From Escherichia coli (GTDB taxonomy: Bacteria; Pseudomonadota; Gammaproteobacteria; Enterobacterales; Enterobacteriaceae), in assembly GCF_036507355.1 (NCBI RefSeq), contig NZ_AP027877.1: a stretch of DNA of 64,000 bases, one strand, 5' to 3'. This document shows, one piece after another, positions 38,339-45,203 of the stretch. The translations under genes and the position numbers were made by a program. The notes under the pieces were generated by a model. It did not search any database. It was given only the letters and a program-made list of their open reading frames with translations, and was not told the origin of the DNA. Each line of letters opens with the position of its first letter. Position 1 is the stretch's first letter.

Positions 38339-38412
38339 GCGGGCGTAGTTCAATGGTAGAACGAGAGCTTCCCAAGCTCTATACGAGGGTTCGATTCCCT
38401 TCGCCCGCTCCA
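38339..38412 (+). tRNA. glyU: tRNA-Gly (anticodon CCC)
   Basis: GCGGGCGTAGTTCAATGGTAGAACGAGAGCTTCCCAAGCTCTATACGAGGGTTCGATTCCCTTCGCCCGCTCCA, 74 nt with encoded CCA. Confidence 0.95.
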
Positions 38413-38546
38413 TGACCTTTCTTAAAGTACTCCAACCTACTGAATCCTAAGGGATACGGCTTTAAGCCTTCCGCTAGTTTTACTCACTGTAACCAACACT
38501 GTAACTAAATTTGTTGAAATAGTGAGCAGACTTAAGATCTCAGTAC

Positions 38547-40178
38547 ATGCTCAACTCAAAAACCTATCTTTATCAGCGCAATGGCGTCTTTTATATCCGC
38601 CTCAGGATGAAGTCCACAGATCGCCTGACCGTTTCACATCCTTCCCATAGCCGTTATAAAATAGCGTCAGTATCACTACGGACTAAGGATAGACGTACAG
38701 CTATGGCTTACTCACGGCAAATCAAGGCAGCACTTAGGGCAATCCATGCAGACAGACCCAACGCCTCCTATGAGGAAATGAGGGAACACCTGAGGGACAT
38801 CGCAGAGTGGGAGTTGTCTACAGGTCGTTCAGACCTCTTCGAGCCAGATATGAGAGATCTATACCGTGACCAGTATGGGGAAGTGGGAGAGAATCTTGTC
38901 CATGCTCTGGCAAGCGAGCCACTGACTATTGACCAGCATCGCTATATTAATGAGGCTCTTAATGTACTCAAGGCCTGCATGAAGCGCATTGAAGCGGGAG
39001 ATAGCCAGCCACTTATAGATTATATAGATGGATTTGATGCTGCTGCTGGGGCTAATGGCCAAGCCTCTGCAACTCTATCTGTTAGTGCTCCCCAAAAAAC
39101 AAGCATTACTGAAGGCAAACACTGCGTAACCGTTGCTTCTCTCTTTGAGCAGTACGAGCAGGAAAACGCCCAGAACTGGAAGCCAGCAACATTACGAGAA
39201 AACAAAGCTTCTCATGCTGCGTTAATCGAAGTTTTTGATTATCTGGGCCTCAATGCTGACGCCAATGTGTTAGCTCGTGCGGATATGCTTAGGGTTCGGG
39301 ATATCCTCCAGCAATTGCCGAAGAATCGTAAGCAGCGTTTCAAAGATGTTCCGTTGGTTGACCTGCTAGGTCGTGAGGATAAAACCGATTGTCTGGATAT
39401 TGTTACCATCAATAATAAATATCTCATTAAGATGGCGGCTGTTTTCAAGTGGGCCGTGCGTAATGACCTGATTAAAAAGAATATGACAGAAGGGCTAGAG
39501 CTTAAGGTTCCCCAGCGTAAAGCCTCTGAGGCGCGTAATGCTTTCTCTACGGAGCAGGTAGGACAACTACTGGCTGCCGCCCAAGTTTACTCACAGAGAC
39601 CTTCTGGTAAGCCGTATCATTATTATGTTACCGCCTTGGCTGCTATCACTGGGGCGAGACTCAATGAAATAGCCCAACTACAGGTCAAAGACGTCAGGAC
39701 CACTGAGGCGGGAACCGTTTATATTCATATCAATGAAGACGATAGTAGTCTACCCGGTAAGAGCATCAAGAACGCTCATAGTGACCGCTGTGTGCCTCTG
39801 GTCGATGGGGCCTATGGTTTTATATTGGCTGACTTTATGAGGTTGGTTGAGACCCGTAGAGGCGCTGATGGTGATGACGCTATGGTGTTCGATGGTCTTC
39901 GCCTCATGAAGAACGGTTACGGTGAGCAGGTGAGTAAATGGTTTAATCGGACGTTGTTGCCTAAAGTCCTCGCAGACCGTAGCGGCTTAGCGTTTCACTC
40001 GTTTAGACATACAGTTGCGACCCAGTTAAAACAACATGGGGTCGAGTTGGCGTATGCACAGGCGATCATGGGGCATAGTTCAGGGTCTATTACTTACGAC
40101 CGTTATGCTAAAGAGGTTGAGGTTGATAGACTGGTCAATGTGATGGCTGATGTTTATAAGGAGGTTGTGGCCCCTTAA
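38547..40178 (+). CDS. Tyrosine recombinase/integrase, unusually large (island 1)
   Basis: 543-aa ORF starting 135 bp after glyU; C-terminal HSFRHTVATQLKQ...AQAIMGHSSGSITYDRYAKE resembles catalytic R..H-x-x-R/Y box. Confidence 0.75.
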   Translation: MLNSKTYLYQRNGVFYIRLRMKSTDRLTVSHPSHSRYKIASVSLRTKDRRTAMAYSRQIKAALRAIHADRPNASYEEMREHLRDIAEWELSTGRSDLFEPDMRDLYRDQYGEVGENLVHALASEPLTIDQHRYINEALNVLKACMKRIEAGDSQPLIDYIDGFDAAAGANGQASATLSVSAPQKTSITEGKHCVTVASLFEQYEQENAQNWKPATLRENKASHAALIEVFDYLGLNADANVLARADMLRVRDILQQLPKNRKQRFKDVPLVDLLGREDKTDCLDIVTINNKYLIKMAAVFKWAVRNDLIKKNMTEGLELKVPQRKASEARNAFSTEQVGQLLAAAQVYSQRPSGKPYHYYVTALAAITGARLNEIAQLQVKDVRTTEAGTVYIHINEDDSSLPGKSIKNAHSDRCVPLVDGAYGFILADFMRLVETRRGADGDDAMVFDGLRLMKNGYGEQVSKWFNRTLLPKVLADRSGLAFHSFRHTVATQLKQHGVELAYAQAIMGHSSGSITYDRYAKEVEVDRLVNVMADVYKEVVAP

Positions 40179-40179
40179 G

Positions 40180-40225
40180 GATGACCATAGGCGATGACCA
40201 TAGGCGATGACCATAGGCGATGACA
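40180..40225 (+). repeat. 3.5 tandem copies of 13-bp unit GATGACCATAGGC
   Basis: Exact tandem copies at 40180, 40193, 40206 plus partial; start 1 bp after integrase stop. Confidence 0.9.
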
Positions 40226-40330
40226 CTTGCTACTATTCCTATGGTCCCCTTTGTGGTCCTATGTGGTCCTGTGTGACCCTTTGTGTGGTCATGTTTTGAC
40301 TCATAGTTTTCACTACTTGTCAAGCATATT

Positions 40331-40353
40331 TAATACGACTCACTATAGGGAGA
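40331..40353 (+). promoter_or_regulatory. Phage T7 RNA polymerase promoter, exact consensus
   Basis: TAATACGACTCACTATAGGGAGA = 23/23 match to T7 -17..+6 consensus; predicted +1 G at 40348; faces the KilA-N gene. Confidence 0.8.
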
Positions 40354-40585
40354 AGGGACACAAAAAGTTTTCTCTCTCTGTCTCTCTCTATGATGACACT
40401 TGCTACTACTTCAGGTAGCTTTAACTCTAACCGTAACTTATCGCATCCTTTCAGGGGCGGGATGACCAATTACAGACACCAAGCGTTCTACTTAAAATGA
40501 ATGCTTCCTGTGTGCTCTGGGTCAGTCGATAAGTGAATAGCCTTAGACATCATATTAATTATGGTCTCTAACCCCTACAGGGGCT

Positions 40586-40729
40586 TAACTTTAAGTATTA
40601 ACTTATAGTCTACTTAAAGACACAATTAAAGATTAACTTAAAGTATTAAATTATAGATTAATTAAAGACCAATTAAAGAGTAACTTTAAGTATTAACTTA
40701 TAGTCTACTTAAAGACACAATTAAAGATT
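40586..40729 (+). repeat. AT-rich iteron-like array: two identical 49-bp direct repeats with a degenerate copy between
   Basis: TAACTTTAAGTATTAACTTATAGTCTACTTAAAGACACAATTAAAGATT at 40586-40634 and 40681-40729. Confidence 0.9.
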
Positions 40730-40922
40730 GACTCTAAGGGAATACCTTAAGAGGTGATGATATTCATAATAATCAATCACCAAACCTATAGGTCTCCTCA
40801 AGGCATTACCCAGAAGCTAACTGTATGGCCCTGTATGGTCCTGTACGCCATTCTTTAGGATGCCATGTAGTTTCGTATGGCCTGATGCCTAGCGTGGCTC
40901 AGAGACCCTCCCAGTAGTAAAT

Positions 40923-40945
40923 CAATACGACTTACTAATAGGAGA
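40923..40945 (+). promoter_or_regulatory. Degenerate T7-like promoter (5 mismatches)
   Basis: CAATACGACTTACTAATAGGAGA retains the AATACGACT core; function uncertain. Confidence 0.3.
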
Positions 40946-41157
40946 CACACTCCGAACCACTCACCACGTGTCTCTCAAAGTTCCACCTCTCGCGCTTCAC
41001 CATACAGTAGCTCCGCACAGCTACGACACAATCATTCATTCAATCTCAAAGTCATTCTGTTTGCATCCTGTTGTCCTGCTGGTCTCCCTTCGCTTGGGGA
41101 CTTTGAGTGGGCCAGTAGGGGGCGGTTTAGTGTGCATATTTAAAAGGTAACCAAGCA

Positions 41158-41721
41158 ATGAACAATAAACATAAACATGCAGGTCATATTATCACTATTG
41201 AAGGCCACAGCTTTAAGTCTAATGAGTCTGGCATGTGGAATCTTACAGAAATATGGAAAATCCTCGGATTACCTAACAATAAGCTACCCTCTCAGTGGCG
41301 CGGCAAGGTAACAAAGAGGCTCACCGACATGCAAAAAATGCACGTCGAGAAGATTGGTATTGAAAGCATAACCTACGCAGACAAACAGGCTACCCTCAAG
41401 TATGCAGGATGGGTCTCTGAAGATTTCGAGGACATGGTCTATGCAGCCTTTGAGGCTATCCTTGAGATGCCTGAAGTTGCCACGGTCGTTGCTAATAAGA
41501 TGGTCGAACTTGGCTATCACGCTGAAGCTGAGCTATTGGAACGTCATAAGGACGACTATAGAGAAGCTATGCAGACCCTTAAAAAGATTGGTAAACGTGT
41601 TGACGGCAGGAAGCCTGAGCGCATCTACAAGGCCGTACTTAACGGTAATCTGACGAAATTTCAAGGGTTATCCATGATTTCTCGCAGCAGTGTCTGGTAC
41701 GCCCGAACAGTGAATCTATGA
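41158..41721 (+). CDS. KilA-N-like DNA-binding domain protein (island 1)
   Basis: 187-aa ORF; N-terminal IITIEGHSFKSNESGMWNLTEIWKILG ... ATLKYAGWVSEDFEDMV resembles KilA-N/anti-repressor N-domain by eye. Confidence 0.5.
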   Translation: MNNKHKHAGHIITIEGHSFKSNESGMWNLTEIWKILGLPNNKLPSQWRGKVTKRLTDMQKMHVEKIGIESITYADKQATLKYAGWVSEDFEDMVYAAFEAILEMPEVATVVANKMVELGYHAEAELLERHKDDYREAMQTLKKIGKRVDGRKPERIYKAVLNGNLTKFQGLSMISRSSVWYARTVNL

Positions 41722-41844
41722 TGGCTATCGATCACGATAGATGCCAGCGATCAATTTCAGGTTACCGATCGAAACAAACGATCAGCACGATGGTTGCAAT
41801 CGGATATCATATTGACACTTGTCTGACATCCTGAAGGTATCAAT

Positions 41845-42318
41845 ATGTTTGGGCTTTTTAAGAAAAAGGCAAAAGCGGAAAGGTGTTATGATGTAACACG
41901 CATTCAATACGAGCTGGTTGTAATGTCATCTAAGCTGATAAAAAAACAGACCGATATGTTCAAAGTAATAAAAGGGGAGCGAGAGGAGGCTTTAGGAGAC
42001 CCTTTATTATCAGCAGGGTATATAACGCCATGGGTCATTGGATATTGCACTGGTCTCCTGGATGCAGTGACTCAGACGGAGGCTAACAGGATGGCATTTA
42101 CATCAGAAATGCTTGGGCTTCTTTTTGCTGCAGTTTTCGGTGATGATAAGTCTCTTGAGGCCATGGGAACTTATATAGCCTGTAACGAAGCCTCCTCACC
42201 AGACCATGGATTTCATGTTACGTATGAGCTTTATATGTCTGGTCTAGCGAAAGCGTTTAATGAGGTATGTGAGGATAAACCTGCGATAGGACTTCTGAAC
42301 TATTTAATGCAGGATTGA
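41845..42318 (+). CDS. Hypothetical protein (island 1)
   Basis: 157-aa ORF downstream of KilA-N gene; no family recognised. Confidence 0.45.
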   Translation: MFGLFKKKAKAERCYDVTRIQYELVVMSSKLIKKQTDMFKVIKGEREEALGDPLLSAGYITPWVIGYCTGLLDAVTQTEANRMAFTSEMLGLLFAAVFGDDKSLEAMGTYIACNEASSPDHGFHVTYELYMSGLAKAFNEVCEDKPAIGLLNYLMQD

Positions 42319-42584
42319 AAATTTCCCACAAAAATCTCAGTGCCTATCTAACAGTAATAACCCTGCAACATTCCCCCGTATACCTCCAGAAGTTATCCAG
42401 AAGCCGAAGTAGGTATCCTGTCATGTATTTGAATCATCAAAGTTGTTCGTTCTATTCCTCTTTAGGGAATATTACAGCCCTACAGCCTTGACCAGAGATC
42501 ACTTGATGTGTAACCATAACTGTAACCAAAAGGATTCATCATCCTTTAAGAAACAATTGGTTAGTGAGTGATTGTCTTCGATAC

Positions 42585-42771: not shown

Positions 42772-43998
42772 ATGAAGCTGACTGCTCGTCAGGTTGAAAC
42801 TGCGAAACCCAAAGAGAAGCCCTACAAACTGGCCGATGGTGGTGGGCTTTACCTGCTGGTTAATCCCAACGGTAAAAGATACTGGCGTCTCAAATACCGT
42901 TCGTTAGGTAAAGAGAAGCTGCTCGCTATTGGCGTTTATCCCGATGTTTCTTTAGCTGAGGCCCGAAGTAAGCGTGAGGATGCTAAAAGAACATTAGCGG
43001 CTGGCAACGATCCCTCTCTTGAACGAAAAATTGAGAAACTTAGTCGTCAACAAGACGCTGAAAACTCGTTTGAGGCTATCACACGGGAGTGGTATCAGCG
43101 TCGCTATGACCGCTGGTCTGTCTCCTACCGCGAAGAAATGCTGAGAACCTTTGAGAAAGATGTATTTCCTTATATCGGTCACAGGCCAATCAAAGATATC
43201 AAGCCGATGGAGTTGCTTGCAGTTCTTTCAAAGATAGAAGCACGAGGGGCAACAGAGAAAGTCCGCAAGGTTCGTCAGCGTTGTGGAGAGGTCTGGAAGT
43301 ATGCCGTTGTGACTGGGAGGGCCGAGTACAATCCAGCACCTGATCTAGCCAGCGCCGTGAGTCCTCATGAGAAAGAGCACTATGCTTTTTTAACCCAGGA
43401 TGAATTGCCTGAGTTTCTTCGGACTCTGAACGCCTATGCCGGTAGTGTGCTTGTTAAGATTGCGATGCAATTGCTCATTTTAACAGGAGTAAGGCCAGGG
43501 GAGTTGAGGCAAGCGGAGTGGCAGGAGTTTGATTTTGAGAAAAAGGTTTGGAATGTACCAGCGGAACGTATGAAAATGCGCCGCCCTCATCTTGTTCCAT
43601 TATCAAGCCAGGCAATTGACCTGCTTAATCAACTTAAACCCATAACGGGAGCAGGAGCGTTATTATTCCCAGGACGTAATAATCCTAAGAAACCGATGAG
43701 CGATATGGCATTGACTGTGTTGGTCAGGCGTATCGGCTATGCCGGGCGCGTTACAGGGCATGGATTCCGCCACACGATGAGTACCATTTTGCATGAGCAG
43801 GGATTCAACTCGGCCTGGATTGAGTTACAGCTGGCTCACGTCGATAAGAACTCAATTCGTGGGACGTATAACCATGCTCAATATTTGGAAGGTCGGCGGG
43901 AGATGATGCAGTGGTATGGAGATTTCATCGGTCAAGCAGGCAAATCCGGATCATCGCTAGCTTATGCAGCTATTAGCTTGACTGCTGAATTAGAGTGA
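42772..43998 (+). CDS. P4-type tyrosine integrase (island 2)
   Basis: 408 aa; N-terminal arm-binding MKLTARQVETAKPKEKPYKLADGGGLYLLVNPNGKRYWRLKYR; C-terminal GHGFRHTMSTIL...LAHVD...YNHAQY. Confidence 0.9.
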   Translation: MKLTARQVETAKPKEKPYKLADGGGLYLLVNPNGKRYWRLKYRSLGKEKLLAIGVYPDVSLAEARSKREDAKRTLAAGNDPSLERKIEKLSRQQDAENSFEAITREWYQRRYDRWSVSYREEMLRTFEKDVFPYIGHRPIKDIKPMELLAVLSKIEARGATEKVRKVRQRCGEVWKYAVVTGRAEYNPAPDLASAVSPHEKEHYAFLTQDELPEFLRTLNAYAGSVLVKIAMQLLILTGVRPGELRQAEWQEFDFEKKVWNVPAERMKMRRPHLVPLSSQAIDLLNQLKPITGAGALLFPGRNNPKKPMSDMALTVLVRRIGYAGRVTGHGFRHTMSTILHEQGFNSAWIELQLAHVDKNSIRGTYNHAQYLEGRREMMQWYGDFIGQAGKSGSSLAYAAISLTAELE

Positions 43999-44008
43999 GA
44001 AGGGGCAA

Positions 44009-44056
44009 GTTGAGCCTCTTCGCTGAGAAGAGGCTCAACGTGAACCTATTTTTTTG
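44009..44056 (+). terminator. Intrinsic terminator after int2
   Basis: Hairpin gttgagcctcttc-gctga-gaagaggctcaac followed by T-run. Confidence 0.65.
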
Positions 44057-44195
44057 GGAGTTAATACTTTTTGCAATTTTTTTTTTCGTGCCGTTGGATG
44101 TAAAGATCTGTGGGGGTTAGGGAAGAAAATCATGCTATGTTAGTCTTTGAGGAGTGAGTCAAAATGTTATAACTTTTTCAAAGAGGCGTTACATC

Positions 44196-45131
44196 GTGAA
44201 AGTCGTTTTTAATGTTAATGGTAAAAAAGTTCCGCTCAAATCTCTGCAATATATAAGTAAAGCAAATCAACTCGAAGTTATGCGGAATTGGTTTTTTGAG
44301 AATTTTGAAGATCCCGCGAACTCTTGCCCGTATGAATCCCGTGAAGGCGGGTATGCTTACATTTATGGGGGCCCATACGAAGCAAGTGAAGAGTTGCAAG
44401 CGATGTTTGAAGGACACGTGAAATTTGATTATATCCAAGAATTAGTCAATGAATTACAAGAACAGTGCTATGAATGGTCTGGTAATTCAAATAATATTAA
44501 TGATTGGTACGATGAAGACTTGTATGATGCTGTTACATCTTCTGAACATCCTTTTTCTAAGTTCGTTGAAAGCATTGATGGAATAAAATTGCTGTCTAAA
44601 GGCGAATTTAAAGATAAACAAAAAGATCATCTGCTTAGCATCCTATATATTAATGTCATTACAGCCCTGGAAACACTTTATGTTGAGTTATTTATTAACT
44701 CTATAGATAAAAACGACTCATATCTTGCTGACTTTATAGAAAAAGGTAAGACGGAATTTAAGGTAAATAAAGGAATATTGGCTTTGCCATTCAAAGGAGA
44801 AACTATTGAAAACATGAGGGCGCAATTAATTAAGGTAATTAAAGAGCATTTGATTAGTGCAAGTTGGCATAGTACAAACAAAGTTGTAGGACGTTATAAA
44901 GCTACATTTGATATAAAAGTACATAAAGAGTGGCCAATAGATGTGATCGAAATAGCAACTCAAAAGCGTAATCATTTAGTCCATCGTGGCGGGAAAGATA
45001 AAGAAGGTAATTCGGTAGTGATTACTGAACAGGATTTAGAAATGTTGCTGGATCACGCACAATCTCTTGGAGAAAAATTGTTTGATAGCCTTGAGGTGGC
45101 ATTACAGAAAAAAGATGAGAATGAATTTTGA
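44196..45131 (+). CDS. Hypothetical protein with HEPN-like Rx4H motif (possible abortive-infection RNase)
   Basis: ORF 44154-45131; GTG 44196 preferred (AAGAGG 9 nt upstream); motif KRNHLVHRGG near C-terminus. Confidence 0.4.
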   Translation: MKVVFNVNGKKVPLKSLQYISKANQLEVMRNWFFENFEDPANSCPYESREGGYAYIYGGPYEASEELQAMFEGHVKFDYIQELVNELQEQCYEWSGNSNNINDWYDEDLYDAVTSSEHPFSKFVESIDGIKLLSKGEFKDKQKDHLLSILYINVITALETLYVELFINSIDKNDSYLADFIEKGKTEFKVNKGILALPFKGETIENMRAQLIKVIKEHLISASWHSTNKVVGRYKATFDIKVHKEWPIDVIEIATQKRNHLVHRGGKDKEGNSVVITEQDLEMLLDHAQSLGEKLFDSLEVALQKKDENEF

Positions 45132-45182: not shown

Positions 45183-45203
45183 CGGCAGGCAGTGCCTGCC
45201 GGA
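45183..45203. terminator. Bidirectional terminator hairpin between convergent genes
   Basis: cggcaggcagtgcctgccgg palindrome between stops at 45131 and 45207. Confidence 0.5.

Follow-up and report, generated by a model that had tools for sequence, protein, structure and literature searches.

The 64,000-nt stretch of Escherichia coli chromosome analysed here (the window; contig NZ_AP027877.1 of assembly GCF_036507355.1) covers the glyU locus and carries, at 44196..45131 on the plus strand (stop codon included), a gene for a protein of 311 amino acids. Sequence comparison assigns this protein, which joins an N-terminal HEPN/RES-NTD1-type domain to a C-terminal HEPN domain, to the NTD1-HEPN family. 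The gene travels as a self-contained cassette found at the margins of prophages, satellites and integrase islands, and no partner gene accompanies it throughout the family. The function proposed here, with moderate confidence, is that of a stand-alone phage-defence protein, an abortive-infection ribonuclease (RNase) that would be activated by infection. The sequence family is itself already known: its architecture was listed in 2013, and it is present in Pfam and PHROGs.

The C-terminal half of the protein (HEPN domain of the RiboL-PSP type, residues ~135-311; 44598..45128, +) is very probably a HEPN domain. The initial annotation had read the string KRNHLVHRGG, which sits about 50 residues before the C-terminus, as the Rx4-6H signature of HEPN RNases. 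The signature is present and invariant in the family, but the match alone is at chance level and is no evidence by itself: in shuffles of the 311-residue protein that keep its composition, Rx4H arises in 16%, Rx4-6H in 41% and R[NHD]x3H in 2.5%. The motif carries weight because it is invariant across the family. Across 54 aligned relatives, some with as little as 27% identity, R258 and H263 of the catalytic-type motif R258-N-H-L-V-H263 (R-phi-x3-H; 44967..44984, +; 311-residue numbering) never vary, and neither do R264, G266, E159 and H225. R-[N/H]-x3-H is found at the same place in every full-length homolog (~105 homologs) and also in 78 of the 105 long cluster representatives recovered by an N-terminal profile alone. 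The motif also has, after its arginine, the polar residue (N, H or D) characteristic of HEPN domains.

Pfam families were called by scanning each of the 54 aligned relatives, the direct scan of the window protein being sub-threshold. PF18735 (HEPN_RiboL-PSP) is matched by 26 of the 54 (E<=0.01; best E 1.4e-9), and precomputed PF18735 matches exist on members that share 65-71% identity with the window protein; together with the invariance of R258 and H263 this bears out the HEPN assignment made earlier. The predicted model displays the four-helix up-and-down bundle of the HEPN superfamily. As no fold match is obtained when the N-terminal 118 residues are modelled by themselves, the fold similarity resides in residues ~119-311. 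A weak PADLOC match to RTasHEPN on the Serratia member covers the motif region.

The N-terminal domain (residues 1-115; 44196..44540, +) is a proposed sensor or regulatory module. PF18870 (HEPN_RES_NTD1) is matched by 52 of the 54 relatives (E<=0.01), and proteins found with the N-terminal profile exceed the PF18870 threshold (P0121, 40.2 bits; P0122, 49.3 bits). NTD1 is fused to a variety of effector-type domains, namely HEPN, PIN_8, GmrSD_N (a DUF262-type nuclease), KAP P-loop NTPase and DUF3644, and this variety fits a shared regulatory or sensing module. Tandem duplicate NTD1 copies are also found; proteins with such fusions or duplications are P0121, P0122, P0150, P0219 and P0239. About 27 of the 105 long NTD1 representatives have a C-terminal region without Rx4H; ten of these were scanned and gave no Pfam match beyond NTD1, and such proteins may carry effector domains that have yet to be recognised.

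The gene had been described as encoding a protein of 311-325 amino acids at 44154-45131. The open reading frame (ORF) is real and reaches 325 codons when counted from GTG 44154, but the longer product is not upheld; the coding start is assigned to GTG 44196, giving 311 residues. This start was chosen for its Shine-Dalgarno spacing, its conserved columns, the PGAP call and the lengths of the homologs. Direct reading of the sequence places a Shine-Dalgarno element, AAGAGG, at 44181..44186 (+), 9 nt upstream of GTG 44196; its column is kept as AAGGAG in relatives. Relatives from Dickeya, Aeromonas, Edwardsiella, Serratia and other E. coli, whose upstream genes differ, keep both the start and the Shine-Dalgarno columns. 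PGAP annotates 311 amino acids ('hypothetical protein') in near-identical E. coli islands, and the homologs returned by a word-indexed search are mostly 310-314 amino acids long. GTG 44154, by comparison, directly abuts GAGGA with zero spacer, and homolog alignments start at the position of GTG 44196. The 14 extra codons of the 325-residue ORF (44154..44195, +) are thus most likely a non-coding, 5' untranslated leader.

Nucleotide homology between unrelated contexts spans 44126..45113 only (the Dickeya homology begins at 44126), that is, the gene together with a 5' segment of ~70 nt holding a -10-like element and the ribosome-binding site. As homology between contexts is limited to this span, the HEPN gene is regarded as an autonomous one-gene cassette. 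The candidate extended -10 element, TGcTATGTT (44133..44141, +), lies ~55 nt upstream of the start and is suggested by conservation: the segment GCTATGTTAATCT is shared with Dickeya, E. coli (locus L009) and Edwardsiella, whose upstream genes are unrelated. A generic promoter scan made no call at 44133..44141. Upstream, a strong 13-bp hairpin with a T-run (44009..44039, +; fold energy -33.5 kcal/mol, z-score -4.86) follows the integrase gene; none of 200 shuffles folds as well, and the hairpin insulates the HEPN gene from integrase read-through. Downstream, the initial annotation had credited the gene with its own terminator. A single GC-rich 8-bp hairpin is indeed present at 45183..45201, in the 75-nt gap to the convergent ATPase operon, but a terminator is recognised there by the scan on the minus strand alone and the gap is shared, so that claim was overstated. 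Fold z-scores are -2.40 for the minus strand and -0.84 for the plus strand, on which the T-run begins 9 nt past the stem. The minus-strand call serves the ATPase operon; possibly the hairpin is a shared, bidirectional terminator.

The protein had also been termed an orphan, which does not hold. The word-indexed search returned 128 homologs, phrog_17908 matches over the full length (E 2.7e-153; PHROGs function, unknown), and relatives occur at 54 IMG/VR loci and, patchily, in 228 of 5426 complete E. coli genomes (4.2%), UTI89 included. A tblastn search of GenBank phage genomes retrieved three metagenomic phage records only, all below 30% identity. The family is carried by integrated elements and not by sequenced lytic phages. 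In Serratia a relative lies directly behind a prophage integrase; in Aeromonas one lies at a prophage end and another beside Thoeris; in E. coli the carriers are a P4-like satellite and a prophage of P22-like type. The Edwardsiella relative belongs to a lambdoid prophage, where it occupies the int-xis-exo region, that of Citrobacter adjoins a P2-type integrase, and that of Dickeya adjoins a ParE/HTH pair. Ten of the 15 closest IMG/VR relatives are within 2.1 kb of the end of their viral contig, and an integrase is detectable within 1 kb in 6 of 27 IMG/VR relatives.

Two groups of relatives depart from the single-gene arrangement. A 320-residue subclade, with ~74% nucleotide identity, accounts for about 216 of the 5426 E. 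coli genomes, including UTI89, and is also found in Aeromonas (loci L005-L007) and IMG/VR (L027-L031). In E. coli its gene is part of a lambdoid prophage, with a DUF977 gene on one side and hokD on the other (UTI89, L022:8011-9990). The second gene that accompanies it, which the window gene lacks, encodes a protein of ~333 amino acids whose C-terminus has a weak GNAT acetyltransferase-like match (E 9e-4); PADLOC matches neither the 320-residue protein nor this neighbour. The pair may be a two-gene variant, in which case some relatives would not be strictly stand-alone. In Pseudoalteromonas distincta (L008:8007-8564) the NTD1-HEPN gene is followed by a gene for a solo RiboL-PSP HEPN protein of 185 amino acids (PF18735, 9.2e-9) and by a gene for 205 amino acids, a hint that a second HEPN subunit may operate alongside some relatives.

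The loci examined, from Dickeya, Aeromonas, Serratia, Citrobacter, Edwardsiella, Pseudomonas, Pseudoalteromonas and E. coli, share no conserved neighbour. The earlier statement that the gene has no obvious partner therefore stands, and the suggested upstream search for a small antitoxin ORF or RNA, made over the 197-nt gap, yielded no candidate. A search of 43999-44200 for small ORFs found unconserved mini-ORFs only; there are no upstream tandem repeats, and no Rfam family scores above threshold (rliI and snoR100 are sub-threshold noise). These results bear on the reading of the protein as the toxin of a toxin-antitoxin or addiction module that stabilises the island, its antitoxin being an unrecognised small protein, an antisense or structured RNA, or its own N-terminal domain. 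AbiF-type HEPN proteins can have RNA antitoxins (10.64898/2026.02.22.705581), the gene adjoins an integrase on a mobile island, and the Dickeya relative stands beside a ParE/HTH pair, all of which suit such a module. Nevertheless, no adjacent MNT gene (the window neighbours are the integrase and ABC-3C) or other conserved adjacent ORF is found in any context examined, the upstream gap holds only the integrase terminator hairpin and a promoter-like segment besides the mini-ORFs, and the conserved 5' segment is only ~70 nt long. This explanation is considered improbable.

HEPN RNases form dimers with a composite R/H active site, and their RNA cleavage is independent of metal; these enzymes are toxic and for that reason need restraint. 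Because no antitoxin gene is found at the locus, control must be intrinsic, and sensing or autoinhibition would most obviously fall to the N-terminal domain. Under the abortive-infection proposal the gene, cargo of the integrase-borne island, would be driven by a short promoter and leader of its own, and the protein would be produced constitutively but held inactive. The HEPN domains of two copies would come together in a composite RNase site, an arrangement known from other HEPN RNases. The N-terminal domain would then sense phage infection, or infection would relieve a block exerted through it, and the activated enzyme would cleave cellular RNA (tRNA, mRNA or rRNA), stopping growth and aborting the infection.

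A role in defence is favoured because the gene adjoins Thoeris in Aeromonas, ABC-3C in the window and mobile elements, and is patchy in E. coli. It also has precedents, the best of them aRES, and further ones in Tha and DARNA, single-protein HEPN defences in which infection triggers the cleavage of RNA. The same carriage could also mean that the protein serves the mobile element in another way, such as letting prophages or satellites compete, controlling induction of the element itself, or processing specific RNAs. Members of the family nearly always reside on prophages, satellites or islands, in many cases by int/xis or at a prophage edge, PHROGs offers no function for phrog_17908, and HEPN domains act in RNA processing too (Anantharaman et al. 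2013, PMC3710099). Such a position is, however, typical of defence cargo as well, aRES, the sister architecture, gives protection against phages, members are co-located with Thoeris and ABC-3C, and the neighbourhoods show no link to a specific phage function. Such a role is therefore rated unlikely, though less so than an addiction module.

Several observations weigh against an infection-activated NTD1-HEPN RNase. The window protein itself lies below both Pfam gathering thresholds, with a PF18870 score of 24.1 bits (E 5e-5; threshold 27.4 bits) and no PF18735 match even at E<=1 (threshold 28.4 bits); the Pfam check proposed for the HEPN assignment gives matches in the relatives, and in the protein itself only the sub-threshold one to PF18870. 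No PADLOC model matches the window protein, and a direct NCBIfam scan gives no match either. Foldseek of the full-length model against the PDB returned nothing significant, and the family sequence profile found no solved relative among all PDB chains (chance-level matches to eL20, 0.021, and Mtr4/DOB1, 1.5). The sensor role of the N-terminal domain is a guess, that domain having no fold match, and the aRES preprint is silent on NTD1 function (bioRxiv 10.64898/2026.01.28.702374). The 320-residue subclade gene is always followed, 16 nt downstream, by the gene for the ~333-residue hypothetical protein, and experimental work on the NTD1-HEPN family is absent from the literature searched.

Some of these points would also suit a superficial resemblance, the protein being a non-catalytic helical protein with a chance motif: the motif is expected in 16-41% of shuffles, the Pfam scores of the protein itself are sub-threshold, and both the Foldseek search and direct comparisons with single proteins are negative. 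The latter, by hhalign and local hidden Markov model (HMM) against Tha-1, the solo 185-residue Pseudoalteromonas HEPN protein and the 333-residue UTI89 neighbour, gave non-significant results, but they do not count against the HEPN assignment because single-sequence targets have low sensitivity. A chance motif is extremely improbable given that R and H are invariant in ~105 homologs down to 27% identity, always with N or H after R, and that a Pfam HEPN family is matched by 26 of 54 relatives.

The HEPN gene was correctly described as convergent on an ATPase operon. This operon is an ABC-3C three-gene system on the minus strand (45207..48173; DUF2326, 1.5e-29; MC6, 3.2e-16; PADLOC PDC-M68B, 7.7e-73), composed of a DUF2326 ABC ATPase (PDC-M68B), an MC6 middle component and an effector-component gene. 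The effector gene, first in the operon (47167..48173, -), contains an 8-bp tandem duplication at ~47403-47410, CAAGACCA CAAGACCA, causing a frameshift that leaves a truncated ORF of 260 amino acids and a remnant of 62; relatives (E. coli NZ_OZ197100 and NZ_CP021726 served as intact references) have an intact 315 amino acids. From its sequence, this strain's ABC-3C system may no longer work. That the HEPN protein is an accessory effector of this system, the four genes forming one unit, is suggested by their adjacency and joint travel in near-identical E. coli islands and one IMG/VR contig, and by an occasional fusion of NTD1 to an ABC ATPase (Anantharaman et al. 2013, PMC3710099). The orientation is nevertheless convergent with a separate promoter region, the system already has its own effector-component gene, and that gene is frameshifted here while the HEPN gene is intact. 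ABC-3C genes occur, moreover, in only 3 of 63 fetched loci holding a HEPN relative, all copies of the same island. A functional unit of this kind is very improbable; in view of co-occurrence and the effector frameshift the partnership is rejected, and ABC-3C is only an island neighbour of the HEPN gene.

The island's own integrase, a P4-type tyrosine integrase with Arm-DNA-bind_3, Phage_int_M and Phage_integrase domains (Pfam), is encoded at 42772..43998 (+). Gene order in related E. coli is actS, tRNA-Gly, integrase, HEPN gene, ABC-3C and ars operons, and GC content is 35% at 44-48 kb against ~50% across most of the window. In the window, tRNA-Gly(CCC) lies at 38339..38412 and is followed by two tandem integrase-bearing elements, an element of ~4 kb separating the tRNA from the P4-type integrase island (38339..42500). 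This element contains an integrase gene (38547..40178), a KilA-N-like gene (41158..41721) and an ORF of 157 amino acids; in E. coli NZ_OZ197100 the HEPN-gene island comes directly after the tRNA. Farther downstream, behind an IS3-family transposase gene (54605..55417), a low-GC block (32-36%; 55813..63285) encodes two OmpR-type winged-helix regulators, a TPR_3 chaperone-like protein, a LuxR-type regulator and an amino-acid permease, with the regulators at 55.8-61.7 kb and the permease gene running to 63.3 kb. This block, with its ETT2-type regulators, resembles the ETT2 remnant that adjoins glyU in E. coli.

Among known systems, the fusion of HEPN/RES-NTD1 to HEPN was catalogued computationally as a predicted conflict-system toxin, with the enterobacterial protein KPK_1764 of Klebsiella pneumoniae 342 as exemplar (Anantharaman et al. 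2013, Biol Direct 8:15, PMC3710099). The window protein has the same two domains in the same order over ~300 amino acids, and its relatives carry PF18870 and PF18735. The 2013 table places the fused HEPN domain in the MAE_28990/MAE_18760 group, whereas current Pfam places the relatives in HEPN_RiboL-PSP; the window protein scores below both Pfam thresholds, and its orthology to KPK_1764 is putative. Both this existing cataloguing and the NTD1 domain that links the protein to aRES had been missed by the initial annotation.

aRES, a combination of PF18870 and a RES domain, defends against phages as a stand-alone protein and does so with growth arrest. It derives from E. coli, Klebsiella and Enterobacter, is found in enterobacterial defence islands and acts against diverse phages; its effector is a RES NADase making ADPR-1''-phosphate (Osterman et al., bioRxiv 10.64898/2026.01.28.702374). 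The window gene is likewise stand-alone, with an N-terminal PF18870-type domain and no operon partners, but HEPN replaces RES, which constitutes an effector swap and not membership. Identity with aRES is rejected, as a RES match is absent in the window protein and in all 54 relatives. NAD+ depletion is not expected for the window protein because its effector is HEPN and no RES domain is detected. Somewhat more tentatively than the RNase proposal itself, HEPN/RES-NTD1 could be a general infection-sensing or autoinhibitory module mounted on interchangeable killers (RES, HEPN, PIN, GmrSD-type nuclease, KAP NTPase), with the window gene as its RNase version, an unrecognised single-gene anti-phage system answering the same kind of phage cue as aRES. 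The main value of the gene lies in this relation, as a natural effector-swap counterpart of aRES with the same N-terminal domain and a different killer. Comparison of the two proteins would bear on what the shared domain senses, a matter that the aRES preprint does not address. If the proposal is true, a widespread, prophage-borne, single-gene RNase defence would be added to the repertoire of E. coli and Enterobacteria, one that current detection overlooks, PADLOC giving no match and PGAP 'hypothetical protein'.

Among RNases, HepT-MntA was rejected, as no MNT gene occurs in any context examined and HepT is less than half as large as the window protein, which has an extra N-terminal domain. 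AbiD/AbiF with an RNA antitoxin was rejected as well: there is no Abi_2 Pfam match in the window protein or its relatives, no repeats and no Rfam RNA, and only ~70 nt are conserved on the 5' side. Tha, from a Staphylococcus aureus prophage, is a single gene by int/xis whose product of 301 amino acids has a C-terminal HEPN domain (R265-N-x3-H270) and an uncharacterised N-terminal region; it is an Abi-like non-specific RNase triggered by a phage tail protein and has a prophage-encoded inhibitor, Ith (PMC11087260). The window protein is alike in length (301 and 311 amino acids), motif (R265-N-x3-H270 and R258-N-x3-H263), C-terminal position of HEPN and single-gene organisation, but no Ith equivalent is seen at the window locus. 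Sequence homology with Tha is not detectable (hhalign probability 1.1%; HMM of the HEPN part against Tha-1, -3.3 bits), and Tha-1 weakly matches HepT-like/DUF4145, not RiboL-PSP or NTD1. DARNA/PD-T7-3 and ApeA each join a HEPN RNase to a non-catalytic sensing domain in a single polypeptide and cleave host tRNA, leading to abortive infection; DARNA is a dodecamer turned on by single-stranded DNA that phage SSB presents (10.64898/2026.02.22.705581). Its domain order is the reverse of that in the window protein, with HEPN at residues 1-159 followed by a Pds5-like domain of 300 amino acids that senses single-stranded DNA, and identity with DARNA/PD-T7-3 is rejected on this ground. PADLOC includes models of the Vassallo PD-T and ApeA systems, and its scan of the window protein gave no match. 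In its manner of action, the window protein nonetheless seems, on balance, to resemble Tha, DARNA and aRES.

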